A stretch of 63,997 bases of DNA, counting the filler, from Thermoplasmatota archaeon (GTDB lineage Archaea > Thermoplasmatota > E2 > JACPAO01 > JAHFTW01), in NCBI GenBank assembly GCA_041623215.1. It is 6 parts of 6 records of this genome, joined end to end, with 100 filler letters (N's around TTAATTAATTAA, not from the genome) between each part and the next. Parts side by side here need not be neighbours in the genome. Positions count along the whole stretch, not along the records: positions 58,265 to 63,997 come from JBFJXH010000112.1; 5 more parts are not named here. One strand, given 5' to 3'. Below the pieces are notes generated by a model. That model saw only the letters and a program-made list of their open reading frames with translations. It was not told where the DNA came from and did no database searches. The position numbers were made by a program, and so were the translations under genes. The first letter of the stretch is position 1; the number at the start of each line of letters is the position of its first letter. Positions 12,350-63,997 of the stretch are shown here, piece after piece.

Positions 12350-13145
12350 AACCGTGGCCCTCCAGCCACATGGCAGCCGTCGCCTTGGCGGCAGCGAAGC
12401 CAACCACGTGGGGCGAATGCATGATGGCTCCCGGCTCCACCGTGTTTCGAACCACGTAGTCGCGGTCATAATCGACGGGTTGGCTCGCCCTCCCACTAGT
12501 CGTCAGGGTTGCCTTGTACGACCGGTCGCCATCCTCGTTGTCCACGGCATACATGCTGACAATCGTGAGATTGCCCGCCTCATCGGCACCCATGGCGTTG
12601 TCAACGCCCCAGATGCGGGCCGCCTCATCCAGACGAGCATAGTAGCGGTTGTCATCCCATTGGGCACCGCCGTCGCGCGATTGGAACGTGGTGTGGGGCT
12701 GGTGAATGGCGTTGTCGCGGGCCGCGCTGTGTGGCGGTTCAGCCTGCGTGGGCAGGTCCGGGCCAGGCCCTCCGTGCAGTGCATTGAAGGCAAGGAAACC
12801 GGGGTGGATGGGGTCAACTGCGAGAACGGGTTGGCCAAGGACGTCTTCGACATCCACTAGATAGGCTGGACAAGCTGGTTGGTCCGCCTGGCCGCGAGCC
12901 ACGGGAGGACATTTGAATTGCACATCGTAATCGCCGGCTCGCATCGTGGCAACCGGCACGCTGGATGCGTGATGGCCGGGCTGCGCTATCACGGTCGCCT
13001 CAGGCGACCAGGAAGGCATGAAGTCCGGCAGTGGGCCGCCAAGTTCTGGAGCCTCAGGTGCCAGGAACGGGCTTACGACGCCGTGCGCGGTCGCAGCTTG
13101 GGGCAGGAAAAGCAACACGACTAGGGGCAGCGCGAGGCGCATCAT
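12350..13145 (-). CDS. Secreted protein with Asp-box-like motif (3' truncated)
   Basis: Signal peptide MMRLALPLVVLLFLPQAATA; GGAGGT SD; SRDGGAQW; ATGA overlap with the upstream gene. Confidence 0.7.
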
Positions 13146-17600: not shown

Positions 17601-19548
17601 GGAAAATTTCGAATTGACGCCAGAACGAATACCGCTCCATGTTGCTAGAGATGAGAAGTCCCTCGCGGGTCGCTTCGCAGGAAGCGGCCAACCCCACCAA
17701 GTCAACGCCGAGCGTGCTGCTTCGGGGCTCTGCCAGGGACCACAGTTGATGCCGGTCCGTGGGGTCAACGACTGGTTGTAGGAGGTCAGGGTCTTGCTGC
17801 CAACGCACCAGTTCCAGTCGTTCCGAATGCCCCACAAAGGCACCCGCGACGCCGTCGCCGCACGATGTCATGACGCCACTCAGGCCCCATGCTTCGTAGC
17901 TTCCAAGTAAGTCGCCTGTGGCACCGTCGATGCGGTCGAACGCGACGCGTGCGGTGGCGCGGAAAACTTGTTCCGTCCCAAGCGCACCAATCATGCGGGC
18001 CGGCATGACCGGGTCAACGATGCCGTCGCCCGTCATGTCGCCGGTTTGGAAATCGTGATACCATTGCCACTGGGCCATGGCGAAGGCCGCGTCGCCCTGG
18101 ATGAGGTCCTGCTCACGTGTCCACAGTCGCTCCCCGCTTTCGCCATCAAGGCCGACCAGGCGTGCGCCCTTGGTGGCCAAGAATTGAGTAGAGCCTTGCG
18201 ATGGAAGGTCCGTTGTGGCCGCCGCATAGGTTCCACTGCCAAGCTCATGGACAAAGCCCCAACCTTGGACAAGGGCTTGCCAGGCAATCTCGCCCGTGGC
18301 GCCGTCCAAGCGTAGGAAATGAGTCCGGGCTGACCCGTCAATGGATACGCCCGCCAGTTGTTCGATGCCAAGCCATTGTGCCATGATGTCGGGAACGCCG
18401 TCGCCGGTCACATCGGAGCCGAGGCGCGCGTGCGTCCACGACAGAACCTCAACGCCTTCTTCGTTGTCCGTTTGCGGTTCAACCGGCACGAGGGGACGAA
18501 TCTCACTCGCCCACAGGATTTCCCCCTCGCCCCCCAAGTTGCCGTCAATGGCCAACATGCGCATCCCGCGTCCGTTGCGGTACGGTTGCTCATTCAGGGC
18601 AGGGACTTCCATTTCATTGCCGCGCGGATTGGCAAGCACCAGTTGGTCGAGAATGATGTCTGGTTGACCGTCGTTGTTGAGGTCCGTCAAGCCGCTAATC
18701 CACGTGATGTTGGTTTCATTGGGGTCGGCCGGCGGGCGGTCATGTCGCCATAGCTCCTGGCCGTTGCCATCAAAGACAATGAAGTGGTCGCGGAGGCGTC
18801 CATCCATGGTCCAGATTTCGTTTTGAACGACGAGTTCCAGAATGCCAAAGCGGTCCTCATTTTGATGAAGCGTCACATCCGTCGTCTTGAGCAGAATTTG
18901 CGTTTCGTTGCCCACTTTGTGCACGCGCAAGTCGGTGGGCAGGTTCAGCACCTGTTGATTGACACTGAACCGGTAGGGCCAATCGAAGACCGTCACGGTT
19001 GTTTGAGGCAGTACCGTTTCCCAGGTTTGGTTGCCTGTGGCACCATCGAGAAGGCGCAGGACGATGTCGGAGTTGCGGACGGCTGGGCTGCCAATGATGG
19101 GCGTGACGATGGAGTCGAGCCGCCCTCGGAGGCCCCATGTGACGAGGTCGCAAACACCGTCGCCGTTCAGGTCGTCCGTGAGCGCCAAGTTGTTGGGCCC
19201 ACGTGGGTCCGGCATGCCACCGCGTAAGAGAGAAATGCCCCTCTCGCCGACAAATACATTGAAGGCGGCGCCGTCCGCGCGCCACAGTTCACTGCCGTTT
19301 TGTCCACTACGTGCGAAAATGGTCGTCTCGCCGCCAGTCGTCGTCCCCTGGCCCCCGGTCTCGAGGGCATTCTCGACGAGGTCCAGCACGCCATCGCCGT
19401 CCAAGTCGCAGGCGGCCTGAATGTCGCGATGCGTGGTTCCGGGGGGAACATAGTACGACCATTGGCCGGCAACCGGTAAACTAACTGCCAGCAAGACAAG
19501 AACAACCATTGGCGCCAGGGCCCGGATTATGTTGGTACGAAACGCCAC
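14695..19548 (-). CDS. 1617-aa FG-GAP/PQQ-like repeat cell-surface protein, internally duplicated
   Basis: Signal peptide; many DxDGDGxxD and DGATG..W repeats; internal TM followed by an Arg-rich segment; C-terminal TM followed by RRRR. Confidence 0.82.
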   Translation of the reverse strand: MAFRTNIIRALAPMVVLVLLAVSLPVAGQWSYYVPPGTTHRDIQAACDLDGDGVLDLVENALETGGQGTTTGGETTIFARSGQNGSELWRADGAAFNVFVGERGISLLRGGMPDPRGPNNLALTDDLNGDGVCDLVTWGLRGRLDSIVTPIIGSPAVRNSDIVLRLLDGATGNQTWETVLPQTTVTVFDWPYRFSVNQQVLNLPTDLRVHKVGNETQILLKTTDVTLHQNEDRFGILELVVQNEIWTMDGRLRDHFIVFDGNGQELWRHDRPPADPNETNITWISGLTDLNNDGQPDIILDQLVLANPRGNEMEVPALNEQPYRNGRGMRMLAIDGNLGGEGEILWASEIRPLVPVEPQTDNEEGVEVLSWTHARLGSDVTGDGVPDIMAQWLGIEQLAGVSIDGSARTHFLRLDGATGEIAWQALVQGWGFVHELGSGTYAAATTDLPSQGSTQFLATKGARLVGLDGESGERLWTREQDLIQGDAAFAMAQWQWYHDFQTGDMTGDGIVDPVMPARMIGALGTEQVFRATARVAFDRIDGATGDLLGSYEAWGLSGVMTSCGDGVAGAFVGHSERLELVRWQQDPDLLQPVVDPTDRHQLWSLAEPRSSTLGVDLVGLAASCEATREGLLISSNMERYSFWRQFEIFPSFGIIDVDGPRWLLPATTSGEDSPALLQESALHRGRFIQSAMELIGWMAVAVAAGIIGALLLAPLLRRRRDAARRRRDPLGIMLMLLLIPTPGMIGFDTADDEADAAVILGDEANELAELDLSPPEPAGTLAPPPTEPKLAGNGEGPTSNSRALPPGSLESSPVNVAPSIGDAAKHLSGGPPRAMTLPGGGPLSDLALALSTPESSDQEIALAFLAAAGQPIDPLVTPEMSITFDHILGDVDGDGVDDVAVDISCLDYFACANTNPSILGGVAWVEWFLAENWCGPYHVVVAVSGASGQPLWDRMMTRPAVVGWAEITTCSVDAIIGPVQTAEGSALLAQRFEWDRGLFDGPAMIRHEVYLVDGATGATRWSIPFEGYYLDSLFGQNVAETLLVKPHLSIPQDTLPNLQGTTEPQLLLQGIGFVANAAILYVSGMGLNRAPEVADTHYPREWMAGVDLDTGTLTYQADTLSPSPGRSVLPWPSVTAPFANANYGWYWDTYPDAIPQGNMDMYWDAAKCCPDVDGDGVADLVTVTREWRDIRTANVDGREGFGMSAYAWSGADGRLLFDQELVDNLPIESANGRGSYPDYDNGITVDIRPAGDVDGDGGQDLLVQLRAFMSDYEDRIYVLDGDTGSTIWERTSPRWQEIHPLGDADGDGGLDFVFMHWWRQENTIEIAGDGSNVTARGIQVLDGNTGEMIRVTNTISAPYDLAAIYARMADGGFPDLDGDGVGDYPTDDPIFLPDGLILHQTTWASGATGELLVTMQNAGTLAFPNRLPDLDEDGLDDVAMVAGDSTDLWLVYHSGGTGEALSSHRLMAAGPTTYARILPKIKVLPLDTGDVVPGVLVNMHLEVTKIAFTFEWVDGDGNTYREFRLEPDTVAQMMYIGDVQSGQGWSFPDATEVGAHEAVAGNTPGTAALLAIRQEAEPTPMEIASDFTTETWPVWLAFVASFGLVTLAAVFGRRRRA

Positions 19549-23918: not shown

Positions 23919-24018
23919 NNNNNNNNNNNNNNNNNNNNNNNNNNNNNNNNNNNNNNNNNNNNTTAATTAATTAANNNNNNNNNNNNNNNNNNNNNNNNNN
24001 NNNNNNNNNNNNNNNNNN
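23919..24018. other. Artificial contig linker
   Basis: N run + TTAATTAATTAA + N run. Confidence 0.99.
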
Positions 24019-35497: not shown

Positions 35498-35597
35498 NNN
35501 NNNNNNNNNNNNNNNNNNNNNNNNNNNNNNNNNNNNNNNNNTTAATTAATTAANNNNNNNNNNNNNNNNNNNNNNNNNNNNNNNNNNNNNNNNNNNN
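35498..35597. other. Artificial contig linker
   Basis: N run + TTAATTAATTAA + N run. Confidence 0.99.
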
Positions 35598-47000: not shown

Positions 47001-47100
47001 NNNNNNNNNNNNNNNNNNNNNNNNNNNNNNNNNNNNNNNNNNNNTTAATTAATTAANNNNNNNNNNNNNNNNNNNNNNNNNNNNNNNNNNNNNNNNNNNN
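47001..47100. other. Artificial contig linker
   Basis: N run + TTAATTAATTAA + N run. Confidence 0.99.
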
Positions 47101-49234: not shown

Positions 49235-49398
49235 GTTCTAGCTGGTTCGCTGTACCCGGCGGGCGCGTAGGCCCGCTTCCATACCCACGGTAGCGCACGC
49301 TGGACTTACCTAGCGCTTGGGGGTAGTGTCGGGCGGTTTCCGTGCCCCCGCACCGCGCGGCCCGGAGGCACCCGGTACCAGACATAGACAGCCAGAAC

Positions 49399-49413
49399 TC
49401 GAACCCGTTCGAC
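49399..49413 (+). promoter_or_regulatory. Palindromic site TCGAAC-CC-GTTCGA(C), copy 1
   Basis: Perfect 6-2-6 inverted repeat in an intergenic region; identical 15-mer at 56108-56122 on the minus strand. Confidence 0.7.
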
Positions 49414-49524
49414 TTCGGCGACCTGAAGGGCACATCGGGGTCGTCACCGTTAAACCCGGAATCCGGCATCCCGCGCCCCGTCGCTCGGCTTGCCGGGCAC
49501 GCTCACATACATGGAGTCACAGTC

Positions 49525-50514
49525 ATGGTTCTCTTCGTCGACAAAGCAGCCGTCCTCGGGGCCGGCGTCATGGGCGCCCGCATCGCGGAAATTCTAGCCC
49601 TCAATGGAACGCGCGTCATTCTCAAAGACATCGACCAGGCCGCCCTGGACCGTGGTATGGCCGTCATCGAAAAGGATCTGGATGAATTGGTCGCTTTCCA
49701 TGCCGCCAAGGCAGACAAGGCCATCAAGGACTTCGAGAAGAAGACCGGCGTAGAACTGACGGACGACCAGAAGGCCAAGGTGGCCGAGACGCTCAAGCCG
49801 ACCTACACAGAGGAGCGGAAGGAGAAGATTCTCGCCAATATCACGCCAACCACGTCGTATGATGGCTTCGACCAACTGGATTTAGTCATCGAAGCCGTAG
49901 TCGAAAAACTCCCGATTAAGCACGCCGTGTACAAGGAGCTTCTAGAACACATTAGTGACCACTGCGTCTTGGCCAGCAATACGTCCACGCTGCCCATCAC
50001 GGAGCTTGCTGCTGGCCTGCCGCAAGAACGGCGGGGGCGCTTCATCGGCGTCCACTTCTTCAATCCCCCAACGCAGTTGCCGCTCGTGGAGATTATCCCT
50101 GGGTTCGAAACGCGCTACGACCTGGCGGATGACATCATCAATTTCTTCGCTCCCATGCGCAACTTCCGCTTCCCCATGCTGCCCATCCAAGTCAAGGAAG
50201 GGCCTGGGTTCTTGGTGAACCGCTTGCTCATCCCGTATCTCCAGGAAGCGCTGGCCTGCTATGAGGAGGGTGTGGCCAGCCCGAAGGACATTGACCTAGC
50301 ACTGCAAGCGGGCGCGGGCATGCCCATGGGTCCGCTTGCGCTCATGGACCTCATTGGCATCGACGTGCTTCATGATGTTTGCAATTCCGTCATGGAACAA
50401 TACGGCACTCATGGCACCGACCCGGTCAAGGCTGCTCAGGTGCTGCGGCGCTTGACCCTCGCCGGCCGCCTGGGCCAGAAGTCAGGCCAAGGATTCCACT
50501 CGTACAACGACTAA
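49525..50514 (+). CDS. 3-hydroxyacyl-CoA dehydrogenase
   Basis: GAGVMG, IEAVVE, ASNTST, GVHFFNP, GFLVNR, PMGPL..DLIGID, GRLGQKSGQGF. Confidence 0.94.
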   Translation: MVLFVDKAAVLGAGVMGARIAEILALNGTRVILKDIDQAALDRGMAVIEKDLDELVAFHAAKADKAIKDFEKKTGVELTDDQKAKVAETLKPTYTEERKEKILANITPTTSYDGFDQLDLVIEAVVEKLPIKHAVYKELLEHISDHCVLASNTSTLPITELAAGLPQERRGRFIGVHFFNPPTQLPLVEIIPGFETRYDLADDIINFFAPMRNFRFPMLPIQVKEGPGFLVNRLLIPYLQEALACYEEGVASPKDIDLALQAGAGMPMGPLALMDLIGIDVLHDVCNSVMEQYGTHGTDPVKAAQVLRRLTLAGRLGQKSGQGFHSYND

Positions 50515-50557
50515 CCGAACCAATCGACGAACCACTCCACGAAACATAGGTGACAAC

Positions 50558-51352
50558 ATGCCAGAATACCTCAACGTCAAGACCGAAAACAACACCGCCA
50601 TCATTACCCTCGACAACGCCCCCGTTAACAGCCTGAACCCGCAAATGCTGGACGAAATCAAGGCGACCATGGAGGAACTAGCCGGCAGCAACGATGTCCG
50701 CGCCATCATCATTACGGGCGCTGGAAACCACGCTTTCTGCGCTGGGGCGGACCTGAAGACCTTCCAGGACTTTGACCCGCAAAACCCCAAGGAAGAGGCC
50801 GAGGCGCTCGTTGCCAAGGGCCATGCTGCCTTCAATGCCATCGAGGATTGCCCGAAGCCCGTCATTGCGGCCATCAACAATTTGGCGCTTGGTGGCGGCT
50901 GTGAGCTTTCCATGAGCTGCGACATTCGCATTTCCTCTGACCGTGCCCGCTTTGGCCAGCCCGAAGTGTGGCTTGGGCTCCTGCCGGCCTGGGGCGGCTG
51001 CACCCGTCTGCCACAAATCGTCGGTGCCGCGAAGGCAAAGGAACTCATCTTCACTGGCCAAATGATCAACGCGCAAGAAGCGCAGCGCATCGGCCTGGTC
51101 AACAAGATCGTCCCCGACGGCGAAGAGCTTCGTGCGGCCATTGACATTGCTCGCATGATTATCCGCAAGTCGGCGCCGCTGGCCGTTGCCGAGAGCAAGG
51201 CCGCCGTCAACTTCGGCCTGCGCGCCGACACCCGCGACGCCAGCCTTGCCAATGAGCTCGCGGCGGCGGGTAAGTTGTCCACCACCGAAGACCTAGTGGA
51301 AGGTCTCACGGCCTTCGTCGAAAAGCGGCCGGCCGAATTCGCTGGCAAATAG
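50558..51352 (+). CDS. Enoyl-CoA hydratase
   Basis: AFCAGADL, PVIAAIN, GGGCE, FGQPE, GLVN. Confidence 0.94.
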   Translation: MPEYLNVKTENNTAIITLDNAPVNSLNPQMLDEIKATMEELAGSNDVRAIIITGAGNHAFCAGADLKTFQDFDPQNPKEEAEALVAKGHAAFNAIEDCPKPVIAAINNLALGGGCELSMSCDIRISSDRARFGQPEVWLGLLPAWGGCTRLPQIVGAAKAKELIFTGQMINAQEAQRIGLVNKIVPDGEELRAAIDIARMIIRKSAPLAVAESKAAVNFGLRADTRDASLANELAAAGKLSTTEDLVEGLTAFVEKRPAEFAGK

Positions 51353-51469
51353 GCGCTCGCAGCGGTCGATACCTTACGGCCAGCGTGTTGCCTTTGGCTC
51401 CTTTTCCCCTTCCTCTTCTCGCTCCGTCTTCTCCATTTCCAACCGCCTGCCCCGAATCAGGAATTCATT

Positions 51470-52681
51470 ATGGGACTCGAATTCTCCTTCACGCCCGCCC
51501 AGCGCCTTCTGCAACGCAGTGCCCGCTCGTTCATGCGAAACGAGATTGAACCCTACCTACCGGCCGATGATTGGACCGGGCATGGTGGCCATACGCCCAT
51601 GGATTTGGTCAAGAAATTGCAGAACCAGGGCTACTTTGGCTTGCCCGTTCCGACAGACCTTGGCGGCCCAGGTATGGGGGAAGTAGAGTATTGCCTGGTC
51701 TTCGAAGAATTGGCGGCTGTCGACTCATCCCTTGCGACCGTATTTGGCGCCCACACGGGCATCGGTCTGATGCCAATCTATCTGTTTGGTAACGATGAGC
51801 AGCGAGAGCGGTATGTGCGGCCCATCGGTGAAGGGAAGCACGTGGCCGCTTTTGCGCTGACCGAGCCAACGGCCGGCAGCGACGCCGCCCACATCAAGAC
51901 CACCGCCGTCAAGGAAGGCGGAGATTACGTCATCAATGGAACCAAGATTTGGTGCTCCAATGGCAACTTTGCCGACACGCTCGTCGTTTTTGCCGTGACG
52001 GATGAAATGCTGGGTGCTCATGGGGGCGTCACGGCATTTATCGTCGAAAAAGACGCTGGCTTCGAAGTTGGAACCATCGAGGACAAGCTCGGCATTCGGC
52101 AATCCAACACGGCCGAACTGATCTTTGACAACGTCCATGTGCCAAAGGAAAACGTGCTTGGAAAAGTGGGTGAGGGCTTCATCGCCGCGCTTACTGCCCT
52201 TGATGGCGGTCGCGTGGGCCTTGGTGCTGCGACGCTCGGGGCGACCAAGCGGCTACTTGAGCAAATGATTGACCATAGTTTGCGCCGGGAACGGTTTGGC
52301 AAATCCATCGGCGAGAACCAAGCCCTCCAATGGGCGATGGCAGACATTGCCTCGGATATTCATTTGGCCCAGTACGCAACGTACCATGCGGCAAGCCTCA
52401 CGAATGACTACTACCACCGCATTGCAGCCGGGGAACCTGTGCCACGAAGCTTGCGTGAACAAGTCAGTCGAGCGGCGGCCGTGGTCAAGATTCATTGCTC
52501 CGAGATGGCCGGTCGGGCCGGCGAGAAAGCCATCCAGGTCTTCGGGGCCGAAGGCCTTCGGATGCGGAACCGCGTTGAGCGGGCCTTCCGCGATCAACCC
52601 ATCACTGAGATTTACGAGGGCACGAACGAAATCCAGCGTCTCATCATTGCACGCGAACTCTTGCAGCGGGGGGGTGTGTGA
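51470..52681 (+). CDS. Acyl-CoA dehydrogenase
   Basis: FALTEPTAGSD, NGTKIWCSN, KLGIR, LDGGR, IYEGTNEIQR. Confidence 0.95.
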   Translation: MGLEFSFTPAQRLLQRSARSFMRNEIEPYLPADDWTGHGGHTPMDLVKKLQNQGYFGLPVPTDLGGPGMGEVEYCLVFEELAAVDSSLATVFGAHTGIGLMPIYLFGNDEQRERYVRPIGEGKHVAAFALTEPTAGSDAAHIKTTAVKEGGDYVINGTKIWCSNGNFADTLVVFAVTDEMLGAHGGVTAFIVEKDAGFEVGTIEDKLGIRQSNTAELIFDNVHVPKENVLGKVGEGFIAALTALDGGRVGLGAATLGATKRLLEQMIDHSLRRERFGKSIGENQALQWAMADIASDIHLAQYATYHAASLTNDYYHRIAAGEPVPRSLREQVSRAAAVVKIHCSEMAGRAGEKAIQVFGAEGLRMRNRVERAFRDQPITEIYEGTNEIQRLIIARELLQRGGV

Positions 52682-53436
52682 TGGGGCTTCGTATTCTGGT
52701 ACCTGTGACCGGTGCCTTCCACGGGCGGCTGCGGGTTCGCCGCAGTTCCGGCCGATTGGACACGGAAGGACTGGACCGTGTCCTCTCCGAGCCAAGTACG
52801 CGCGCCCTGAACTTGGCCCTGCAACTGCGCGAGCACGACGCGGAGTTGGTGGCCGTGCACGTGGACAAGGGTGGCGGCGAAGCAATCCTTCGCGAAGCCA
52901 TGGCTTACGGCCTTGACCAGGGCGTTCTGGTGGAAAATGCCCCCAAGCCGAGCGACGCCGGGACGCGGGCGGCCACCATGGCCGAAGTGGTCAAGCAAAA
53001 CGGACCGTTTGACGCCGTCATCGGTCCGGCGCGAAGCGAATTTGGAGGCTTTTCAGGGACCTTGGCCGCGCTGGCGGGCAATCTCGAACTACCGTGCGTT
53101 GTGGGTGTGCGCCGCATTGCCCCCGACGATGGCGGATTTGCCGTTGGCTACACCAGCATCTTCGGAGATTACGACCTGCACATCCCGCGCCCATGCGTGG
53201 TTCTGGCGGGTGACTTGCCGCCTGCCTACCCCACCAGTTGGGGCATTACGGCGAGCCATGAAGAGAAGGGGCTCCTTCGCGTCGACGCCACCACGTTTGG
53301 CCTCGCCGGGCCGTCCACCGACCGCGCGCGCGTGGAGGGTGTGCCGCGTGCCGAGCAAAGCCTAGAGGAAGTGGATGGCGCAACCTTGGTGCGAAGGCTT
53401 CGCAGTCGGAGCCTGATTGCGGAGGGTAATCCATGA
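52678..53436 (+). CDS. Electron transfer flavoprotein beta-like subunit (divergent)
   Basis: RALNLALQL, LREAMAYGLDQG, LAGNLELP, LHIPRPCV; overlaps both the ACAD and ETF-alpha genes. Confidence 0.75.
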   Translation: MMGLRILVPVTGAFHGRLRVRRSSGRLDTEGLDRVLSEPSTRALNLALQLREHDAELVAVHVDKGGGEAILREAMAYGLDQGVLVENAPKPSDAGTRAATMAEVVKQNGPFDAVIGPARSEFGGFSGTLAALAGNLELPCVVGVRRIAPDDGGFAVGYTSIFGDYDLHIPRPCVVLAGDLPPAYPTSWGITASHEEKGLLRVDATTFGLAGPSTDRARVEGVPRAEQSLEEVDGATLVRRLRSRSLIAEGNP

Positions 53437-54488
53437 GCGATGATTGGGGCTTTGCCGACGTCTATGCGATGGACGATGAACCGGTGGAGAAAACCGGACA
53501 ACTGACCGACGTCGTAGGCGAAGATTGGCGCAACATCCTGGTGCTCGGTCGTGCGACAGCCGATGGCGTTTACCCTGAAACGCTGAGTCTGGTAGGCCGT
53601 GCTCGCCACATGGCGGACGAACTAGGTTGCCGGGTCGAAGTGTTGCTCATTGGCGAGAATCTTGACGCAGCAACCGAGGCACTCAAGCGATATCCGATTG
53701 ACACCGTCTACCGAGTATCAGCGCCCGATTACGCGCCCATCGATCACACGGCAAGAATCATTCAGCAGGTGGTTCGCAAGCGCCGTCCTGAACTGGTCAT
53801 GGTTTTCCAGTCCCGCACGGGTGACGCGCTGACCGCCTACGCCGCAAGTCGCTCGGGCGCGGGCTTCGTCGTCGGGGCTATTGATGTGCAAATGGACACC
53901 ATGGAGCGCAAGGCGATTGTGCGCCACCAGGCCGTGAATGCGGGCTTCATCATCAACACGCACTTCACCAGCCAGCCACAATTCGTTAGTGTCCAGCGCG
54001 GCCTGTTTCGCTCGCCGATGGAGGACCCCTATGCCAATGTCACTGTGCATGACCTTGACATTGATGCCGGGCAACTGGCTGATATTCGGGTCACGGAGCG
54101 CCGGGAACCGAAGGCTCCTGATCTTGCCACGGCCGAAACGGTAGTCATTGCCGGCAGTCGCGTTGCCACGTCCGAAGCATTGGCCGCAGCGGAGGCCCTA
54201 GCCAAGCGGCTAGGAGCTGCTTTTGGCGTGACGCGGGCGGTCGTTGAGCGAGGCCTAGCGGACGAGACTGCGTACAGCGTGGTTGGGTGGTGGGATGTCC
54301 ACGTCGCTCCTCGTCTGCTGGTCACTGTTGGGTGCCGTGGCGCCCTCGACTTCCAGAATGGCATCGAAGGGACGCCGGTCATTGCCGCGCTAGGAAATGA
54401 TGCTGGAGATGCCATTGCCGGCCTCGCAGCCTACCTGGTACCTGGCGACCCGGCTGAAGCTATGGCGGCGTTTGAAGCCGGCTTGTAG
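53433..54488 (+). CDS. Electron transfer flavoprotein alpha-like subunit (divergent)
   Basis: PELV, PQFVSV, DLATAETVVIAG, LAKRLGA..GVTRAVVE, VAPRL, PGD. Confidence 0.78.
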   Translation: MSDDWGFADVYAMDDEPVEKTGQLTDVVGEDWRNILVLGRATADGVYPETLSLVGRARHMADELGCRVEVLLIGENLDAATEALKRYPIDTVYRVSAPDYAPIDHTARIIQQVVRKRRPELVMVFQSRTGDALTAYAASRSGAGFVVGAIDVQMDTMERKAIVRHQAVNAGFIINTHFTSQPQFVSVQRGLFRSPMEDPYANVTVHDLDIDAGQLADIRVTERREPKAPDLATAETVVIAGSRVATSEALAAAEALAKRLGAAFGVTRAVVERGLADETAYSVVGWWDVHVAPRLLVTVGCRGALDFQNGIEGTPVIAALGNDAGDAIAGLAAYLVPGDPAEAMAAFEAGL

Positions 54489-54493
54489 GGCCC

Positions 54494-54892
54494 CTACGCC
54501 TTTTCGAACATCATGCCCGGCTTGTAGGACGGGATGTATTCGACTTTCGAGCCCATGGGCAGCTCGGAAGGCCGTCCAATCCAGGGAATCCATCCGCTGA
54601 CTTTGGGCCCGTCGTCCAATTGAATGACAGCAAAGGCGAAGGGCGTCTCATTCAGGAATTCCTCCGCAGCTACCGATTGAATCGTGTAAGAAACCACGGT
54701 GCCGGTAGTGGAAAACTGGCGTCGGCTAATGTCGGTGCTGCGGCACTTTGAGCAGCGCATCATGGGGCTGAATTGGTCGTAGGAACACGCATTGCAATGG
54801 AAGCCCGTGATGTTGCCATCGCGAAGCAACTCGGCTTGCTCCTTCATGGTGATGGCCGGGGCCGAGGTGGCCTCCTGGACGGTCTCGCTCAT
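54494..54892 (-). CDS. DUF35 Zn-ribbon/OB-fold protein (thiolase partner)
   Basis: CNAC...P...CSKC, GTVVSYT, PF..AVIQLDDG; directly downstream of the thiolase gene. Confidence 0.92.
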   Translation of the reverse strand: MSETVQEATSAPAITMKEQAELLRDGNITGFHCNACSYDQFSPMMRCSKCRSTDISRRQFSTTGTVVSYTIQSVAAEEFLNETPFAFAVIQLDDGPKVSGWIPWIGRPSELPMGSKVEYIPSYKPGMMFEKA

Positions 54893-54893
54893 G

Positions 54894-56051
54894 TCAGGAC
54901 CTCCGTGCCAGGATGTGGGTCGCAACGGTGCCGCCGGTGGCGCCGACGTTGTGCGTCATGCCGCGCGTGGCACCATCCACTTGTCGGCCGCCTGCCTCGC
55001 CACGAAGTTGGATTACGGTCTCCACAATCTGGCCGACTCCCGTCGCTCCTACTGGGTGACCTTTCGCCTTCAGGCCGCCACTCGGGTTGATGGGACGGTC
55101 GCCGTCCGGGTACGTCCGCCCTTCGTTCTCGGCGATGTAGCCCTTGCCTCGCTCGAAGATTCCTAGGTCTTCGCTCGCCACGATTTCGGCAATCGTGAAG
55201 CAATCGTGAACCTCGAAGAAGTCGATGTCCTTGGGCTTGACCTTGGCCTGCTGGTAGGCCTTTTGGCCGGCGCTGACCGTCCCGGGAATGGTCGTCAAGT
55301 CATCGCGGTCATGTAGCGCGGCAATGGAGCCGCTGCGGGCACTTGCCTCGACGTAGATGGGCGTGTCCGTGAGCTTCTTGGCCACTTCTTCCGAGCAAAG
55401 GATTGCTGCGGCTGCGCCGTCACTGAACGGGCAAGCATCGTAGAGTTTCAGGGGGTCAGCGACTTTCATGGAGCTCATGACGTCCTCCATGGTGATTTCC
55501 TTGCGCAAATGCGCTTTTGGATTGTGGACCGCGTTCTTGTGGTTCTTGATGGCCACGTTGCCGAGGTCCTCCTCTCCGGCGCCGTATTGATCGAAGTAGC
55601 CACGCGCCATGGTGGCATACAAGCCGGGGAACGAGCAGCCATTGCCGCCTTCGAACGTGTAATCAGAGCCATAAGAGAAGTAGGTCGTAGCTGTGAGCGT
55701 ATCCAACATGCTCACACGCTCTACGCCGCCGGCGATGACCATGTCCGAGAAGCCGCCCGCCACATCACGGTAGGCATGGTGGAAGGCGGTGCCGGCGCTG
55801 GCGCAGGCGGTTTCCATCATGGTCGCGGGCGTCTCCGGGATGCCAAGGGCGGTCATAATGAGCGGGCCCAGGTGGCCTTGTTTTTCCGCCACGCCGAAGG
55901 CATTGCCAAAGAAGCCGCCCTCAATGTCCGTGGCGGCAACGCCAGCCTCTTCAATCGCATCGTTGGCGGCGACCGTCATCAATTCGTGAGCTTTCAGATC
56001 TAGTCGGCCGTACTTGGTAGAGCCGATACCGACAACGCATACGTCACGCAT
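54894..56051 (-). CDS. Archaeal-type thiolase (acetyl-CoA acetyltransferase)
   Basis: ETACASAG, NPKAH, SDGAAA, EVHDCF, NPSGGLKAKGHPVGATG, HNVG. Confidence 0.95.
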   Translation of the reverse strand: MRDVCVVGIGSTKYGRLDLKAHELMTVAANDAIEEAGVAATDIEGGFFGNAFGVAEKQGHLGPLIMTALGIPETPATMMETACASAGTAFHHAYRDVAGGFSDMVIAGGVERVSMLDTLTATTYFSYGSDYTFEGGNGCSFPGLYATMARGYFDQYGAGEEDLGNVAIKNHKNAVHNPKAHLRKEITMEDVMSSMKVADPLKLYDACPFSDGAAAAILCSEEVAKKLTDTPIYVEASARSGSIAALHDRDDLTTIPGTVSAGQKAYQQAKVKPKDIDFFEVHDCFTIAEIVASEDLGIFERGKGYIAENEGRTYPDGDRPINPSGGLKAKGHPVGATGVGQIVETVIQLRGEAGGRQVDGATRGMTHNVGATGGTVATHILARRS

Positions 56052-56107
56052 GATATGTTCAAGGCTAGGTTGAACGTGAAAAGGGGAAAAGGGTGGTGGT
56101 GAGTGGG

Positions 56108-56122
56108 GTCGAACGGGTTCGA
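56108..56122 (-). promoter_or_regulatory. Palindromic site TCGAAC-CC-GTTCGA(C), copy 2
   Basis: Plus strand reads GTCGAACGGGTTCGA, upstream of the thiolase gene; identical to 49399-49413 when read in the coding orientation. Confidence 0.7.
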
Positions 56123-56145
56123 TGCCACGTGCCTTTGGGCCAATT

Positions 56146-56622
56146 CTAGGCAAGCCCTGCGATGGCGGCCTGCTCCAACCCATCGCCTTGCGCCGCTGCT
56201 TTCACGGTGCCTGCGCCATCCAGAACGACGACCGCCGCCTGGCTATTGGCATCATCGATGCCAAAAGCGCCACCCACGGCATTGTCAAAATCAGCGCAAA
56301 TGACGACGTAGTCCGGTGCCTTGTCCTCGCCTAGCTTCTCAGCCAGGCGATTGTATTGCTGGCCAATTTGCGCACTGGCCAGCTTCTTGAACATGCCAGC
56401 CATGGCTCGTAGGTCTACGATGTTCGCCACCACGACGTCCGGATTTGGGTGCTCGGCTCGCACCGCCTTGCCAATGGCTTTGGGAGCATCCGTAGTTTTG
56501 GGTCCGTGGAACACGAGAACGGCTTGCTTGCCCGCCAACGATTCCTTACTGATGGTGCGGCCACTGACCGCGGCGGCAATCGTGAAGTCGGGCGCGTCGG
56601 TGCCAGGTGAGGGTAGGCTCAT
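56146..56622 (-). CDS. Thioredoxin-fold (redoxin-like) protein without CxxC
   Basis: PGTDAPDFT..., LAGK..VLVF, AD.D..V..AFG, VVLDG.GTV. Confidence 0.65.
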   Translation of the reverse strand: MSLPSPGTDAPDFTIAAAVSGRTISKESLAGKQAVLVFHGPKTTDAPKAIGKAVRAEHPNPDVVVANIVDLRAMAGMFKKLASAQIGQQYNRLAEKLGEDKAPDYVVICADFDNAVGGAFGIDDANSQAAVVVLDGAGTVKAAAQGDGLEQAAIAGLA

Positions 56623-58264: not shown

Positions 58265-59614
58265 CCGGACACGTATGACTACGAAATCGGCCTCTTCAAG
58301 GCCGCCACGGCTCGCGAGTCAGGCGGCGTCCGCGAGAGTTACGATGACCCCTTCTCCATCGAACAGCGCCAAGACAACGGCTCCCGACACACGATTCACG
58401 AACTCTACCTCGCCTACGTGCAGCCAGAAGAGGTGGATGACGAACCGGAGCCGGCAGGCAATGCCACCGGCAATTCCACCGGAGAGGCCCTTGGTGAAGG
58501 CGAAGATGGCAACCTAACCTTCGACCTCAACCGAACCGACTACGTCGTCGCAGCATGGCTCGAAACGGCCCAAGAGCCCGGAAACAGCAGCATGCGGTAC
58601 GCCGGATTCATTGACTTCGCCTTCACAGAAACGGGCGGACGCAACAATTGGACCCGCCTGAATGAAACGCAAATCATCGGGCCCTGCAAGGACTACAGCA
58701 ACATCGAGGCTTGGGACGGCTTGGTGTACGTTGCCTGCAACGTGGCGAAGGGCTACGACCACCGGCCACGCGCCCGGATTGGTGACATTGATGTCTGGAG
58801 TTTCGACCCCACCACGGGCGAAACGGAACTTCTGGGCACCACCGGCCTCAATGGTGGGCGTCCCCGGCTCGCCATTGCCGACGACGGCTACATGGGCATT
58901 GTCACCAGCCGCTGGCACAGCATGCAACAAGTCGAGGTGCGCATGGCTGCCGGCTGGTACGGGTACCAATGGGAGCCGCTACCCGGCGACTTAGGTGGGC
59001 GCCTGCACACGTGGCTTGGCGGCCACGACATGTGGGATGCCGACGTGACCGCAGTCGAAATGACGCGTGACCACGTCATCTGGATTAGCTACAAGGAGTG
59101 GAACAACCGCACCCAGGACAATCTGCCCGAACCGGACCCGTCGGACCCCAGCAACCTGGATGGCGTTCGCTTGGTGGACTTCCGTAAGATGGTCTTTGCC
59201 ACCGACATGTGCAGTGGCCCCATAGCTGGCGTTGAGATGCAATTGGGCACGCAAGTGGATGCCTACAACTATGACATCTACAGCCAGGACCCGGGTGCCT
59301 TCAATGACCACCAAGACGGTCTTCACCGCGCTATCGACCCACTTACCGGCCAGGAATTCCTGTACTTCGCTGTGAACGATTACGGGGCGATGCAATTCGG
59401 CGCCATGTACTTGGAGGGCCAGCCTGGCTTCTGCCCGCCTCCGCCCCCACCACTCAATCCCGGCATCCTGCCGGTGCCACAGGCCCTCTCTGTGGCAAGC
59501 CCCAACACCGCCATCATCGGCAGCGCCTTCGGCGTGGCTAGTGTGGCGGCCATTACGTACCTACTAGCCGTCAAACGGCGCAACCCGATCGCCGCCGTCG
59601 CGGAGGACCGATGA
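58265..59614 (+). CDS. Membrane-anchored surface protein (5' truncated)
   Basis: Open from the contig start; beta-rich; poly-Pro stalk; C-terminal TM followed by KRR. Confidence 0.75.
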   Translation, partial: PDTYDYEIGLFKAATARESGGVRESYDDPFSIEQRQDNGSRHTIHELYLAYVQPEEVDDEPEPAGNATGNSTGEALGEGEDGNLTFDLNRTDYVVAAWLETAQEPGNSSMRYAGFIDFAFTETGGRNNWTRLNETQIIGPCKDYSNIEAWDGLVYVACNVAKGYDHRPRARIGDIDVWSFDPTTGETELLGTTGLNGGRPRLAIADDGYMGIVTSRWHSMQQVEVRMAAGWYGYQWEPLPGDLGGRLHTWLGGHDMWDADVTAVEMTRDHVIWISYKEWNNRTQDNLPEPDPSDPSNLDGVRLVDFRKMVFATDMCSGPIAGVEMQLGTQVDAYNYDIYSQDPGAFNDHQDGLHRAIDPLTGQEFLYFAVNDYGAMQFGAMYLEGQPGFCPPPPPPLNPGILPVPQALSVASPNTAIIGSAFGVASVAAITYLLAVKRRNPIAAVAEDR

Positions 59615-61542
59615 TGAAACAACGACTGAGCCATGTGGACCCCCATGATTGGGTGGCCGCACAGAAGATCAAGACCACGGCTGACGTGAAACTGCCCCAG
59701 CGCCTCATTGACGAAGTCATCGGCCAAGAAGAAGCGGTGGCCGTAGCCAAGAAGGCCGCCCGGCAAAGCCGGCATTTACTGCTCTTGGGCGACCCTGGCA
59801 CGGGGAAGTCCATGATTGCGAAGGCCATGGCCGAACTGCTGCCGGAAAGCCACTTGGACGACGTTCTAGTTCGCGCCAACGCCAAGGACGAAAACCAGCC
59901 GTTGGTTGAAATCCACAAGGGCGGCGAAGGTCGAGCCCTGATGTTGGAAGAAGTGAAGCAGGCCAAGAAGAAGGCACGTGTCTACACGTTTGCCGAATGG
60001 GGCATGGCTGGCTTGTTCGTCTTCGCTGGACTGTACGGCCTCATCGCTCTTGGTGGCTTCCAAGGCCTGATGGCCGTGCTTCTTGCGACTCTCGTGGCGG
60101 TGTTCTTCCTGCACGTGGCCCGGCAAAACCGGGGCAACGTGGCAAAGGACGTTCCCAACCTGCTCATCGAGCGACCCGACACGCCCATTCCGGCGCCCTA
60201 TGTCGACGGTACCGGCAGCCATGCCGGTGCCCTTCTAGGCGATGTGCGCCACGACCCGTTCCAGTCCGGTGGGCTCCAGACGCCCACGCACGAACGCGTT
60301 GAGCCCGGTGCCATCCACCGCGCCCACGGTGGTTTGCTGTTCATTGATGAAATCAACGTGCTCCGGCTGGACTCGCAACAAGCACTCCTTACCGCCATGC
60401 AAGAGGGCAAGTACGCCATCACGGGCCAATCGGACAAGTCAAGCGGTGCCATGACGCGAACCGAGCCGGTGCCGTGTCAGTTCATTCTAGTGGCCGCCGG
60501 CAACATGGACGTCATTGCGCCGACGGACAACCAATACACCGGCCTGCACCCCGCCCTGCGCTCGCGTATTCGAGGTTACGGCTACGAAGTGTACGTCCGC
60601 AGCGCCATGGACGACACGGATGACAATCGCTTGAAGCTCGTCCAGTTCGTCGCCCAAGAGGTTCGCCGAGATGGTAAGATTCCGCACTTTGATTCTGCTG
60701 CGACTGGCGAAATCATCCGAGAAGCCCAACGCCGCAGCGGTCACAGCGGCAAGCTCACACTGCGCCTGCGTGAACTGGGCGGCCTCGTCCGCACAGCCGG
60801 TGACCTAGCACGCGACGAAGGACGTGACGTTGTAACCGTCGAGGACGTGGTTGGCGCCAAGCGCATGAGTCTCAGCCTCGAGCATCAAGTAACGCTTCGC
60901 GGCATTGAACTTACGACGGCCAAGGAAGCCATGGATACCTCCGGCGCCCTCGTGGGCACCAGCCGCAGCTGCGCCTTCCTTGGTACCGGCGAAACGGGCG
61001 AACCCGCCGGCATCGTGGTCCCCATTGAAGCCGATGCCACGGTTAGCAGTAACAAGAACCGCGGCACGCTCTTCGTCGGCGGAGGCTTGGATCGGAACAA
61101 CACCATTCAGGACAACGTGGGGGCGCTTCTGAAGCGTCTGCGCGGAGCCGACATGGCTGGCATTGACTTGCACGCACAGGCGCTGCTTGAACAACCGTCG
61201 GCCGACGTTGGCGCACTCGGCGCGGCGACGGCCGTCGCTTGCATCAGCGCCCTGGAGGGACTCCCCGTCCACCAAGATGTTGTCGTCATTGGCAACCTTG
61301 GTGTGAGTGGCCGGCTGCGCAGCGTCGAAGGCATCACTCAAATGATTGAGGCCGCCGCCGACCTCGGCTACTCCACGGCCGTAGTCCCGGCGGGCAATGC
61401 CACGGACGTGCTTCTGGAACATGGCTACGAGGACCGCATCAAGGTGGTCTTTGAAGATCACATGGCGGGCGTCGTAGCCCACGCCCTGAAGGCACCCAAG
61501 ACGCGCGTCAAGCTGGTCCAAAACGCCTTGCAGCGCAAGTAG
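59611..61542 (+). CDS. LonB-family membrane AAA+ protein with non-catalytic protease domain
   Basis: VIGQEEA, GDPGTGKS, two TMs, GALLGDVRHDPFQSGGL, LFIDE, HPALRSRIRGYG, LRLRELGGLVR. Dyad positions are Ala535 and Met578. Confidence 0.93.
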   Translation: MMKQRLSHVDPHDWVAAQKIKTTADVKLPQRLIDEVIGQEEAVAVAKKAARQSRHLLLLGDPGTGKSMIAKAMAELLPESHLDDVLVRANAKDENQPLVEIHKGGEGRALMLEEVKQAKKKARVYTFAEWGMAGLFVFAGLYGLIALGGFQGLMAVLLATLVAVFFLHVARQNRGNVAKDVPNLLIERPDTPIPAPYVDGTGSHAGALLGDVRHDPFQSGGLQTPTHERVEPGAIHRAHGGLLFIDEINVLRLDSQQALLTAMQEGKYAITGQSDKSSGAMTRTEPVPCQFILVAAGNMDVIAPTDNQYTGLHPALRSRIRGYGYEVYVRSAMDDTDDNRLKLVQFVAQEVRRDGKIPHFDSAATGEIIREAQRRSGHSGKLTLRLRELGGLVRTAGDLARDEGRDVVTVEDVVGAKRMSLSLEHQVTLRGIELTTAKEAMDTSGALVGTSRSCAFLGTGETGEPAGIVVPIEADATVSSNKNRGTLFVGGGLDRNNTIQDNVGALLKRLRGADMAGIDLHAQALLEQPSADVGALGAATAVACISALEGLPVHQDVVVIGNLGVSGRLRSVEGITQMIEAAADLGYSTAVVPAGNATDVLLEHGYEDRIKVVFEDHMAGVVAHALKAPKTRVKLVQNALQRK

Positions 61543-61663
61543 CTGCCTCACAGGCCTCAACGACGCCACGGCGCGGGTCCGGGACCAAGGTCCCCGCTGC
61601 CCGGGTGCCCCTTCGCCGCTGGCTGCCCTTTCCCTTTAACCCCGGCCGCCAACTGCCGCCCCC

Positions 61664-63157
61664 GTGTTCAAGTCGCTGCTGGTTGCCAACCGAGGCGAGA
61701 TTGCGTGTCGCGTGATTCGCGCGGCCAAAGCGCTGGGTGTGCGGACGATTGCCGTCTATTCAGACGCCGACCGAGGTGCCCTCCACACGCGGCTGGCCGA
61801 TGAGGCGATTCACGTCGGCCCCGCCCCCAGTAGCCAAAGCTACCTGGTCGTGGACAACATCTTGGCTGCCGCCAAGGAATCAGGCGCGCAAGCCATTCAC
61901 CCCGGTTACGGATTCTTGTCGGAAAACGCGGACTTTGCGCGCGCCGTCCAGGCTGCCGGAATCGTTTGGGTGGGCCCCCCGCCGGAGGCAATGGACCGGA
62001 TGGGCGACAAGACGCAGGCGCGAGCCGAGGCGGAAGCAGCAGGCGTTCCCGTGGCTCCTGGCAGCCCCGCGTTGGCCGATGCACAGGACGCCGCCACGTG
62101 GGCAAGCAAGGTAGGCTACCCAGTCATGCTCAAGGCGGCCGCGGGCGGCGGCGGCATGGGGATGCGCGTGGTCCACGACGCCAGCGTCATCCAGGCGGAA
62201 TTCAAGGCGTGCCAAGATCAAGCCCGTTCGGCGTTCGGCGTCCCGGACGTGTTTCTCGAGAAATTCATTCAGCGGCCCCGCCACATCGAGGTGCAAATCT
62301 TGGCGGATGGGCACGGCAACTGCATCCACTTGTACGAGCGGGAATGCAGTATTCAGCGCCGTCATCAGAAGCTGGTGGAGGAAGCGCCCAGTCCGGCGTT
62401 AACGCAGGAACAGCGCGTCGACATTGGGGCCAAAGCGGTGGAACTTGCCAAGCGCGTGGGCTACACCAATGCGGGCACGATGGAGTTCCTGTATGAAGAT
62501 GGAAACTTCTACTTCAACGAAATGAACACGCGGATTCAGGTCGAACACCCTGTCACGGAACTCGTCACAGGCGTAGACCTCGTGCAATGGCAATTGCGCA
62601 TTGCCAGCGGCGAAGAGTTGTCGATTCGACAGTCTGACGTGGCGCTCAAAGGGCACGCCATTGAGCTTCGCATCAATGCCGAAGACCCGCGCCGCGACTT
62701 TCTTCCGACGCCGGGGCCGGTGCATCGCCTCCGGTTACCGGTCGGAGACGGCATTCGCGTGGACCACGGACTCATCGAGGGGTGGACCGTACCAGATTGC
62801 TACGACTCCATGGTGCTCAAGCTACTTGCGCACGGCCCCACTCGCCGCGAAGCCATTGACCGCGTTCTCCGGGCGACAGGGCAACTGGACGTGGATGGCG
62901 TGGGCGTCAACACGGTTTGGCACCAAGCCTTGCTCCAGGACGAAGCGTTTCTGGCGGGTGACTTGAGCACGCGCTTCTTGGAGGAACGAGATATCCTGCG
63001 ACTCGACCCTGGCCCGGACGCTCGGCGCCGGGCTGCCGCGGTGGTCGCCGCCCTAGTGAATGCACCCGGCGCTGGTCTAGCTGGCCTGCACGCCCGCCAA
63101 GCGCGACCGCCCATGGTCCAGCGCTCAAGCGGCGAGCGCACGTGGGAGGTTGCATGA
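61664..63157 (+). CDS. Biotin carboxylase subunit of an acyl-CoA carboxylase
   Basis: LVANRGEIA, HPGYGFLSEN, GGGGMG, RHIEVQ, ERECSIQRRHQK, EMNTRIQVEH, RINAED. Confidence 0.96.
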   Translation: MFKSLLVANRGEIACRVIRAAKALGVRTIAVYSDADRGALHTRLADEAIHVGPAPSSQSYLVVDNILAAAKESGAQAIHPGYGFLSENADFARAVQAAGIVWVGPPPEAMDRMGDKTQARAEAEAAGVPVAPGSPALADAQDAATWASKVGYPVMLKAAAGGGGMGMRVVHDASVIQAEFKACQDQARSAFGVPDVFLEKFIQRPRHIEVQILADGHGNCIHLYERECSIQRRHQKLVEEAPSPALTQEQRVDIGAKAVELAKRVGYTNAGTMEFLYEDGNFYFNEMNTRIQVEHPVTELVTGVDLVQWQLRIASGEELSIRQSDVALKGHAIELRINAEDPRRDFLPTPGPVHRLRLPVGDGIRVDHGLIEGWTVPDCYDSMVLKLLAHGPTRREAIDRVLRATGQLDVDGVGVNTVWHQALLQDEAFLAGDLSTRFLEERDILRLDPGPDARRRAAAVVAALVNAPGAGLAGLHARQARPPMVQRSSGERTWEVA

Positions 63158-63654
63158 TGCGAGCCGTCATCGACCTCGACGGCCACCAGTTCGACGTGAA
63201 GCTAGAGCCCATGGACTCGGACGAAGCCGACACGGCCGGGCCGCCGCGGTGGCGGGCCACGGTGGACGGTGAGGCATTCGAGGTCGTTGCAAGGGAGCCT
63301 GGCATCATGGAGTCCGGTGGCAGCATGCACACCGTGGCTCTGGCCGGCGACCAAGTCATCGTGAATGGTTCGGCTGCCAAGCTTTGCATCGAGCACTTGG
63401 ACGGCGTGGCAGGCGCCCAAGGTGCCGCCGCCGGCGACGGGACGATTCGGCCGCCCATGAATGGAACAATTGCCGATGTTCTTGTTTCGCCCGGAGATGC
63501 CGTCGGAGCCGGCGACGTGTTGTTTGTGCTGGAAGCGATGAAGATGCAAAATCAGGTCAAGGCGCCCATGGCGGGCACCGTCGCGGACGTCGGCATCAAG
63601 GTTGGCGAGACGGTAGTGCCGGCCCAGGTGGCAATTCGCATCACGGCCGCGTAG
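63154..63654 (+). CDS. Biotin carboxyl carrier protein
   Basis: PMNG, LEAMKM biotinylation motif; ATGA overlap and GGAGG SD. Confidence 0.93.
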   Translation: MMRAVIDLDGHQFDVKLEPMDSDEADTAGPPRWRATVDGEAFEVVAREPGIMESGGSMHTVALAGDQVIVNGSAAKLCIEHLDGVAGAQGAAAGDGTIRPPMNGTIADVLVSPGDAVGAGDVLFVLEAMKMQNQVKAPMAGTVADVGIKVGETVVPAQVAIRITAA

Positions 63655-63757
63655 CAGGTTCCGTGCATCCACGGCAGCGAGCCGAGCCGGCTTCCCAAAA
63701 CCTCCCAAACGGGGTTGGAGCGCCGCGCTTAACCCTCGGTCGGTCATGCCCGGCTCA

Positions 63758-63997
63758 ATGGGCGAACGCGAAGCCGGCATCCGAGCTGACATTGAGCGCC
63801 TCGAGCGTGGCGGACCCAAGAAGTACCACGACAGACTTCCGGATGAAGGGCCCGGCAAGCGCTTCGTGCGCGACCGCTTGCAGCTGTTTTTCACCGAGGG
63901 ACTAGATTTCGAGGATGGCCTCTTTGCCAACAATCTCCGGGCAGACGAGGGTCTGGCGGCCGACGGTATGGTCACCGGCACTGGGACCCTTGGCGAC
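63758..63997 (+). CDS. Acyl-CoA carboxylase carboxyltransferase subunit (runs off window; not in ORF track)
   Basis: MGERE...GGPKKYH...GKRFVRDRL...FEDGLFAN...AADGMVTGTG; CTTAAC box about 29 nt upstream. Confidence 0.88.
   Translation, partial: MGEREAGIRADIERLERGGPKKYHDRLPDEGPGKRFVRDRLQLFFTEGLDFEDGLFANNLRADEGLAADGMVTGTGTLGD

Follow-up and report, generated by a model that had tools for sequence, protein, structure and literature searches.

The window analysed here is a 63,997-nucleotide stretch made up of six contigs of one Thermoplasmatota archaeon genome (GCA_041623215.1) joined by N spacers. Its last contig (C112, window 58265–63997) encodes a LonB protein with an intact ATPase module and a protease domain that has lost its catalytic residues, hereafter the dead LonB. 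This protein is an AAA+ pseudo-protease with a dedicated, unnamed partner encoded directly upstream, and the clade to which it belongs, together with this partner, is real, conserved and apparently undescribed in print. It is likely that the dead LonB is a non-proteolytic ATPase working with this partner. More specifically, and with a probability of roughly four in ten, we propose from sequence that the dead LonB ring would use ATP to pull the partner's basic tail, so that the weak anchor of the partner is loosened or extracted and nothing is cleaved. The partner gene is the main clue to the function of the dead LonB, and the preliminary description of this DNA did not mention it.

The dead LonB scored 630.3 bits against the LonB model TIGR00764 (cut-off 516.6), and its C-terminal domain matched PF05362 over the cut-off. 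The RadA model TIGR00416 reached 34 bits against a cut-off of 403, and the architecture is that of LonB with a membrane insert. A membrane-anchoring insert inside the AAA+ module defines LonB (PMC9569914). In the dead LonB this insert has a hydropathy (KD19) of up to 2.4, and AlphaFold2 predicts helices at residues 107–147 and 150–172. The AlphaFold2 model of the protein (mean predicted local distance difference test, pLDDT, 84.7) has T. onnurineus LonB 3k1j as its best structural match; against LonB structures, it gave a Foldseek E of 2e-66 and a VIA Z of 33.8, with a root-mean-square deviation (rmsd) of 3.7 Å over 551 residues. The modelled dead domain matched the A. fulgidus P-domain 1z0b with a Z of 27 and an rmsd of 2.1 Å over 197 residues. 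The start codon of the gene overlaps the stop codon of the partner (ATGA), and an alternative ATG lies at 59614.

The catalytic dyad is lost. In a phmmer alignment, Ala535 and Met578 fall without gaps on both catalytic positions of 3k1j, a chain that itself reads Ala at both and that we take to be an engineered double mutant. At the same columns, the A. fulgidus P-domain chain 1z0e reads GDSAS and K, and the canonical paralogue of the same genome (contig C125) reads EGDSAS and K. The residue before the Ser column is Gly534, not Asp, and the B-type Lon centre, in which Asp precedes the catalytic Ser (PMC9569914; B-type centre also PMC2605481), is absent. Among the 120 best database homologues of the dead LonB, the Ser column holds Ser in 28 and the base column holds Lys in seven, and the two never occur together; within the subgroup of the window gene (clade A), Met is fixed at the base column (23/23 sequences). 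An alignment slip hiding a nearby Ser or Lys was ruled out by the ungapped alignments to the structures and to C125 and by the 120-sequence survey. The replacements extend beyond the dyad: when 54 dyad-less sequences were compared with 121 canonical ones, replacements were seen throughout the catalytic loop (canonical GVEGDSAS), at the TGS threonine (Ile560 in the window copy), in the beta-1 strand VNGLAV and in neighbouring motifs, and the structural Gly, Asp, His, Ser and Glu positions of the P-domain were kept.

Walker A and B, Asn298, Arg317/Arg319 and Arg385/Arg387 are invariant in 120/120 homologues. Pore loop-1, whose limits were taken from TonLonB (PMC9569914) and mapped through the alignment to 3k1j, keeps its Phe or Tyr. 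Canonical LonB conserves four RKH/pre-sensor-1 pore-loop positions at which the dead clade is variable, which fits a changed client. The preliminary description had reported intact ATPase motifs and transmembrane insert, dyad positions 43 residues apart occupied by Ala and Met, and a full-length domain free of stops. All three observations held: the first by alignment, hydropathy and the invariance among homologues, the second by the alignments to 3k1j, 1z0e and C125, and the third by an open reading frame (ORF) of 643 amino acids with no internal stop. The Lon_C and LonB model alignments that it had suggested gave the scores above, and the search for close orthologues with an intact dyad returned none among the 120 best homologues.

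It is very improbable that the dead domain remains able to cleave peptides through a rebuilt chemistry. The occasional Ser and Lys at the two columns and the conservation of Arg570, Gln577 and Glu464 would allow for it, but the window copy has neither dyad residue, and the oxyanion loop, the TGS threonine and the substrate strand are degenerate. The only conserved Ser and Lys (Ser546, Lys508) are equally kept in canonical LonB, whose catalytic residues are different ones. The name 'ATP-dependent protease LonB', which databases give to these proteins, is very probably wrong for the whole clade.

The genome contains three lonB genes: the canonical copy on C125, the dead clade-A copy in the window and a second dead copy on C68 with Gly and Arg at the dyad columns. 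The preliminary description had proposed looking for a canonical copy, and C125 supplies it. Among 31 genomes of the order, a dead copy was found in 29 and a canonical copy in 29. A search with the dead domain matched 35 of the 38 genomes of the order (E < 1e-30), compared with 0/159 other genomes of the class. In a 401-genome sample of the phylum, dead LonB was also present in six genomes outside the class, and canonical lonB was found in four of these six. Dead copies are kept in at least 41 species-level genomes. They were monophyletic in every tree, with 48 of 95 rows forming one clade (FastTree support 1.0; 0.994 with the AAA module only); in another tree the clade comprised 54 rows, and in a tree built with the motif columns removed its SH-aLRT was 100. 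The clade divides into subgroup A, to which the window gene belongs and in which Met is fixed, subgroup B with Gly/Arg, the variable subgroup C, and subgroup D. As many as four dead copies occur in one genome (G024). Some clade-A proteins (P0050, P0065, P0066, P0067; L140:3870-4600, L166:430-1110) have an N-terminal extension of ~230 residues with several hydrophobic segments, probably a fused membrane domain.

Selection was estimated from NG86 ratios of nonsynonymous to synonymous substitution (dN/dS) in 15 clade-A pairs. The ratio was 0.03–0.18 for the AAA module, 0.05–0.32 for the dead domain and 0.13–1.3 for the membrane insert; dS approached saturation in several pairs, among them the ones involving the window gene, whose dead domain gave 0.21 and 0.32. 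The canonical P-domain of the same genomes gave 0.01–0.22 (14 pairs). The membrane insert is the fastest-evolving part of the protein, with a mean identity of 30% in clade A against 52% in canonical copies. Because these ratios are low, the dead domain is, as judged from substitution patterns, maintained, with somewhat relaxed constraint. The expectation of the preliminary description that dyad-less orthologues form a clade under purifying selection, and that the gene is not decaying, was thus borne out by a single clade, the constraint on its dead domain and the invariant ATPase motifs. A decaying lonB duplicate was rejected: decay could leave a long stem branch and clade-B copies such as the two that look broken, but dN/dS was far below 1 in 15/15 pairs for both the AAA and dead domains, and the gene is widespread in the order and has been kept, together with the same partner, in two distant lineages.

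Two features of the dead LonB bear on the origin of the clade. A hairpin of the form GxGExGEP and an insert after sensor-1 were found in active LonBs of Thermoplasmatota families outside the class and are absent from the order's own canonical LonB. The insert occurs in the intact LonBs L202, L286-L289, L291, L295 and L296, most of which also have a GxGExGEP-like hairpin, and is absent from the other LonBs examined. The idea that both features were inventions of the dead clade was rejected on their presence in these catalytically intact proteins, and they are possibly a lineage marker. Descent from the outside-class LonBs is suggested by these shared indels and by the full-length tree (support 0.93). 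Together they hint at a duplication in an outside-class LonB lineage followed by transfer into the order. With motif columns removed, no placement of the sister group was favoured, as approximately unbiased (AU) tests rejected 0/3 placements (p 0.08, 0.67, 0.52).

The partner is predicted to be a seven-bladed propeller surface protein. Members of its family have ~570–700 residues and share 23–37% identity across all subgroups. Their anatomy comprises a signal peptide, two Cys pairs, an Asp-box-like motif, a Pro-rich stalk, a single Ala/Gly-rich helix and a basic tail of ~13 residues, which is the only predicted cytoplasmic part. Cys87/107 and Cys325/342 are invariant in 22/22 sequences, and the polar ectodomain residues Asp113, His139, Arg152, Asp174, Lys489, Asp529, Asp532 and Asp552 in 21–22 of 22. 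The helix has a low hydrophobicity (mean best KD19 1.85; 45% A/G/S; 41 sequences), and the tails differ by subclade, reading AVAED[RK] or KA[RK]K in A, EAPSL-like in B and KG[EK]-like in C. The predicted model of a same-genus orthologue (pLDDT 79.5) is a propeller closest to seven-bladed propellers (VIA Z 23–27), with ~10% identity to any solved structure. Foldseek matches to sialidases (GH33), which are six-bladed propellers, had low TM-scores (0.3) and 10% identity, and the nearest ESM Atlas clusters are BNR/sialidase-like. No Pfam match over the cut-off was obtained for 15 family members, and no NCBIfam match, sorting-signal models included, for seven (E 0.1). As regards sorting of the PEP-CTERM/PGF-CTERM type, a helix and a basic cluster are present, and no invariant motif precedes the helix. 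Among 8000 database candidates scored, 22 were partner homologues, all of them without a functional name. For the missing 5′ part of the window's partner gene, signal peptide included, the very probable location is the 3′ end of contig G000:C172, which carries map and a divergent hsp20 in an arrangement matching syntenic relatives.

Pairing of the two genes is nearly complete. Among 48 different dead copies selected on similarity of the Lon, the partner was directly upstream in 43 and directly downstream in one, and four had no upstream DNA. An enlarged set comprised 66 dead copies; six of its Lons are truncated ahead of the dead site, and the partner served to locate some of its loci. In this set the partner was upstream in 61 and downstream in one, with four lacking testable DNA. 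By comparison, no partner was found in the fetched flanks searched at 47 canonical lonB loci (39 with at least 1.3 kb upstream), nor at 73 canonical metagenome loci (from 79 examined, one set aside). The partner is present in 34/38 genomes of the order, and in the only genome with a dead Lon and no partner, the Lon sits at a contig start. Strong partner matches and dead P-domains over 115 bits fell in the same 27 genomes of the phylum sample; three borderline Lon matches proved to be canonical. Partner and motor trees of 52 pairs had 22/31 and 25/37 supported splits in common, with a patristic r of 0.82. Because these trees largely agree, they show the partner and the dead Lon, on this phylogenetic reading, to have duplicated as a unit. 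Two or three partner genes stand in tandem before one dead lonB in L168, L169 and L170 (genus g11) and in L194, L195 and L196 (clade D), and in the clade D arrays the Lon-adjacent partner belongs to a second, divergent type whose C-terminus differs.

These results bear on a further suggestion of the preliminary description, that the dead LonB is a regulatory subunit of mixed Lon hexamers, which found no support, since each dead paralogue travels with its own partner, up to four per genome. A related possibility is that dead subunits join canonical LonB rings or hand over clients to them, the partner or its ligand then being degraded under regulation. Canonical lonB does accompany the dead gene in most carriers, and the AAA modules of dead and canonical copies of the same genome are 62% identical. 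However, their P-domains are just 34% identical and the dead genes are unlinked to canonical lonB, which, with the separately partnered paralogues, makes this explanation rather improbable.

The other claim of the preliminary description, a likely ATP-driven non-proteolytic motor, gained support from the clade, the selection on it, the invariant ATPase motifs and the canonical lonB alongside, with ATPase activity itself being predicted. The LonB ring assembles under the membrane. The dead LonB would likewise form a ring on the inner membrane face, in which the dead protease-fold domain may serve as a scaffold. This ring would hydrolyse ATP and grip the partner's ~13-residue tail as a handle, and the weak anchor would be loosened or extracted with no cut. 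A surface receptor or adhesin could in this way be released, turned over or reset. Gripping of the tail is favoured because the tail and the weak anchor are the only parts of the partner within reach of the ring.

Several points weigh against this proposal. Thirteen residues make a short handle, the tails are loosely conserved and some lack a clear motif, and a propeller with disulfide bonds between its invariant Cys pairs could not cross the membrane intact. The rapid evolution of the membrane insert makes a tight helix–helix interface unlikely. Operon linkage and co-phylogeny follow from shared descent and imply neither contact nor its direction (client or adaptor), so that contact between tail and motor is proposed from gene pairing and sequence. 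At least two partner copies (L163, L164) are not beside any Lon. In addition, the dead domain is less constrained than the active one (68% against 81% mean identity), two clade-B Lons look broken (an internal TAA in L036 = G025:C64; a match split into two frames in L082 = G030:C140), whether by assembly error or by recent decay, and the hairpin and post-sensor-1 insert, being shared with active LonBs, are no sign of new function.

The operon surroundings were examined for additional components. Clade B operons carry large FG-GAP/BNR surface proteins. A secreted S15 gene (X-Pro dipeptidyl-peptidase/CocE-type) occurs in the operons of clade C (downstream) and clade D (upstream), at 15/50 loci screened. 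Clade A operons, including that of the window, have no conserved third gene. An archaeal hsp20 is divergent from the partner-lonB operon at 11/50 loci and in this genome (G000:C172:2143-2769, minus strand; L127:11104-11784), mostly limited to clade A and within a housekeeping cluster with map. Biotin carboxylase genes downstream of the operon (14/50 loci, all clade A) were considered as part of the module and rejected as what looks like local synteny.

With these genes in view, the partner might be a surface receptor or adaptor and not a client, with the dead LonB ring pulling other polypeptides across or out of the membrane, such as scavenged peptides or co-encoded secreted proteins. The invariant polar residues of the ectodomain, as in a binding pocket, the S15 and FG-GAP/BNR proteins and the precedent of the FtsHi import motor (PMC8197885) are in keeping with this. 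We nevertheless consider it unlikely, as no channel gene is conserved at the loci screened, the membrane insert is poorly conserved and clade A lacks a third gene. A version that joins both ideas, unlikely though by no means far-fetched, is a two-component envelope machine: the propeller would act as a receptor that captures polypeptides or surfaces outside the cell, and the dead LonB ring would pull either these or the receptor through or along the membrane. A signalling or scaffold role, in which the propeller senses an outside ligand, the tail then alters how the ring assembles or which nucleotide state it adopts, and the ring acts on cytoplasmic clients, for example with Hsp20, without pulling the partner, would suit the receptor-like single-pass anatomy and the divergent hsp20. 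This role is quite improbable, because the hsp20 link may be ancestral synteny and no regulator gene is conserved near the loci.

The features of the window are collected in Table 1. The 3′ part of the clade-B partner gene, preceding the second dead lonB, is inferred to lie on G000:C68. Beyond the dead lonB, positions 61664–63997 hold a biotin carboxylase/carrier/carboxyltransferase cluster, the first two confirmed by Pfam. Positions 49342–56183 hold what we take from motifs to be acyl-CoA catabolism genes (3-hydroxyacyl-CoA dehydrogenase, enoyl-CoA hydratase, acyl-CoA dehydrogenase, an ETF pair, and a thiolase with its OB-fold partner).

Table 1. Features of the window, in window coordinates, and S15-family genes at related loci.
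Feature	Position	Strand	Basis or remark
Clade-B partner gene, 5′ part	12350..13145	-	76% identical to G016 clade-B partner
Front half of clade-B operon: large FG-GAP/PQQ-repeat protein, BNR lipoprotein, partner 5′ part	12350-18348	-	
Partner gene, 3′ 449 codons, beta-propeller ectodomain	58265..59614	+	5′ end cut by contig start
Partner Pro-rich stalk	59432-59485	+	
Partner Ala/Gly/Ser-rich membrane helix	59507-59572	+	
Partner basic C-terminal tail KRRNPIAAVAEDR	59573-59611	+	
Dyad-less LonB paralogue, clade A, 643 aa	59611..61542	+	ORF without internal stop, TIGR00764 score, alignments, predicted model
Walker A GDPGTGKS (residues 60-67)	59788..59811	+	Lys66 and Ser67 invariant in 120/120 homologues
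Membrane-anchoring insert, predicted helical hairpin (residues ~130-172)	59998..60126	+	hydropathy and AlphaFold2 helices
Pore loop-1 (residues 210-233 = TonLonB 209-232) with Phe217	60238..60309	+	Phe/Tyr in 120/120 homologues
Walker B LLFIDE (residues 242-247)	60334..60351	+	Asp246 and Glu247 invariant in 120/120 homologues
Presumed sensor-1 Asn298, 6-9 residue insert (residues ~302-310), ALRSRI with presumed arginine finger Arg319	60502..60567	+	roles assumed from TonLon numbering
LRLRE motif (residues 384-388) with presumed sensor-2 Arg387	60760..60774	+	
Lon protease-fold domain without catalytic apparatus	60943..61494	+	alignments, model
Conserved GTGETGEP hairpin	60982-61005	+	inside protease-fold domain
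Ala535 at catalytic Ser column	61213-61215 (GCA)	+	ungapped alignment
Met578 at catalytic Lys column	61342-61344 (ATG)	+	43 residues after Ala535
N spacer blocks	12250-12349, 23919-24018, 35498-35597, 47001-47100, 58165-58264		genes flanking spacers are not true neighbours
S15-family gene	L147:2852-4969	-	
S15-family gene	L157:2584-4692	-	
S15-family gene	L196:5591-7483	+	

Compared with archaeal LonB (TIGR00764; MEROPS S16.005; T. onnurineus 3k1j/4zpx, A. fulgidus 1z0b-1z0w), the dead LonB has the same domain order, insert, ATPase motifs and predicted fold, but it lacks the Ser-Lys dyad and the Asp before Ser, has a degenerate substrate site, and is an extra paralogue beside canonical lonB, paired with a surface propeller gene. 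BNR/Asp-box propeller surface proteins ('exo-alpha-sialidase family' clusters; YncE/WD40-type seven-bladed) share the partner's predicted fold and Asp-box-like motif, and the partner differs from them in its lack of a Pfam or NCBIfam match and its low identity to solved structures. ComM/YifB are ATPases with a non-proteolytic Lon-fold domain that act on DNA. Msp1/ATAD1 extract membrane proteins; they belong to another AAA clade and have no Lon domain. Their likeness to the dead LonB lies in the proposed mode, a membrane-anchored AAA ring removing single-pass proteins without cutting, although Msp1/ATAD1 do general quality control and the dead LonB has one co-encoded candidate client. BrxL and RadA/Sms are likewise ATPases with a Lon protease-fold domain without catalytic residues, but they act on DNA and have other ATPase modules, no membrane insert and little Lon identity (<20% for BrxL) (PMC10164562). 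LonC of Meiothermus taiwanensis shares the LonB-related architecture (Foldseek and VIA matches) and is a mirror image of the dead LonB: a soluble protein with a dead ATPase and a live protease (PMC3391209).

A functional parallel is FtsHi of plant chloroplasts, membrane AAA+ protease paralogues that keep an intact AAA domain beside a disabled protease, are retained alongside active relatives and serve an import motor (PMC8197885). They differ in belonging to the FtsH family, with a degenerate HEXXH zinc site (M41) in place of Lon_C, and in forming heteromers with an active-type subunit in a eukaryotic organelle. The likeness is by analogy of function only, with no homology of the protease domains. 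The chaperone-like role of human LONP1 needs its ATPase and not its protease activity (PMC8368198). Haloferax LonB, an essential protease, has targets in the cytoplasm as well as in the membrane; the available text of the review concerned contains neither the term 'chaperone' nor 'paralog' (PMC9263693). MEROPS S16 holds unnamed non-peptidase homologues (PMC9569914), and a database entry for the dead clade may exist there. The literature searched, which covered few subscription journals and no supplements, yielded no account of the partner or of an archaeal LonB that lacks the dyad but has an intact ATPase.

Protease-independent activity of Lon has mostly been studied with engineered mutants, and the dead clade is a natural, selected mutant tied to one candidate client. 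This makes the dead LonB and its partner a clean system in which to ask how a membrane protein is recognised by a membrane Lon, gripped and dislodged. Should the two-component envelope machine prove true, it would be the first motor for import or extraction that evolved naturally from Lon. It would also be the prokaryotic equivalent of the FtsHi motor in chloroplasts, and one that has diversified into at least four paralogous receptor–motor pairs. The dead LonB and its partner point to an uncharacterised cell-envelope function in uncultured Thermoplasmatota.

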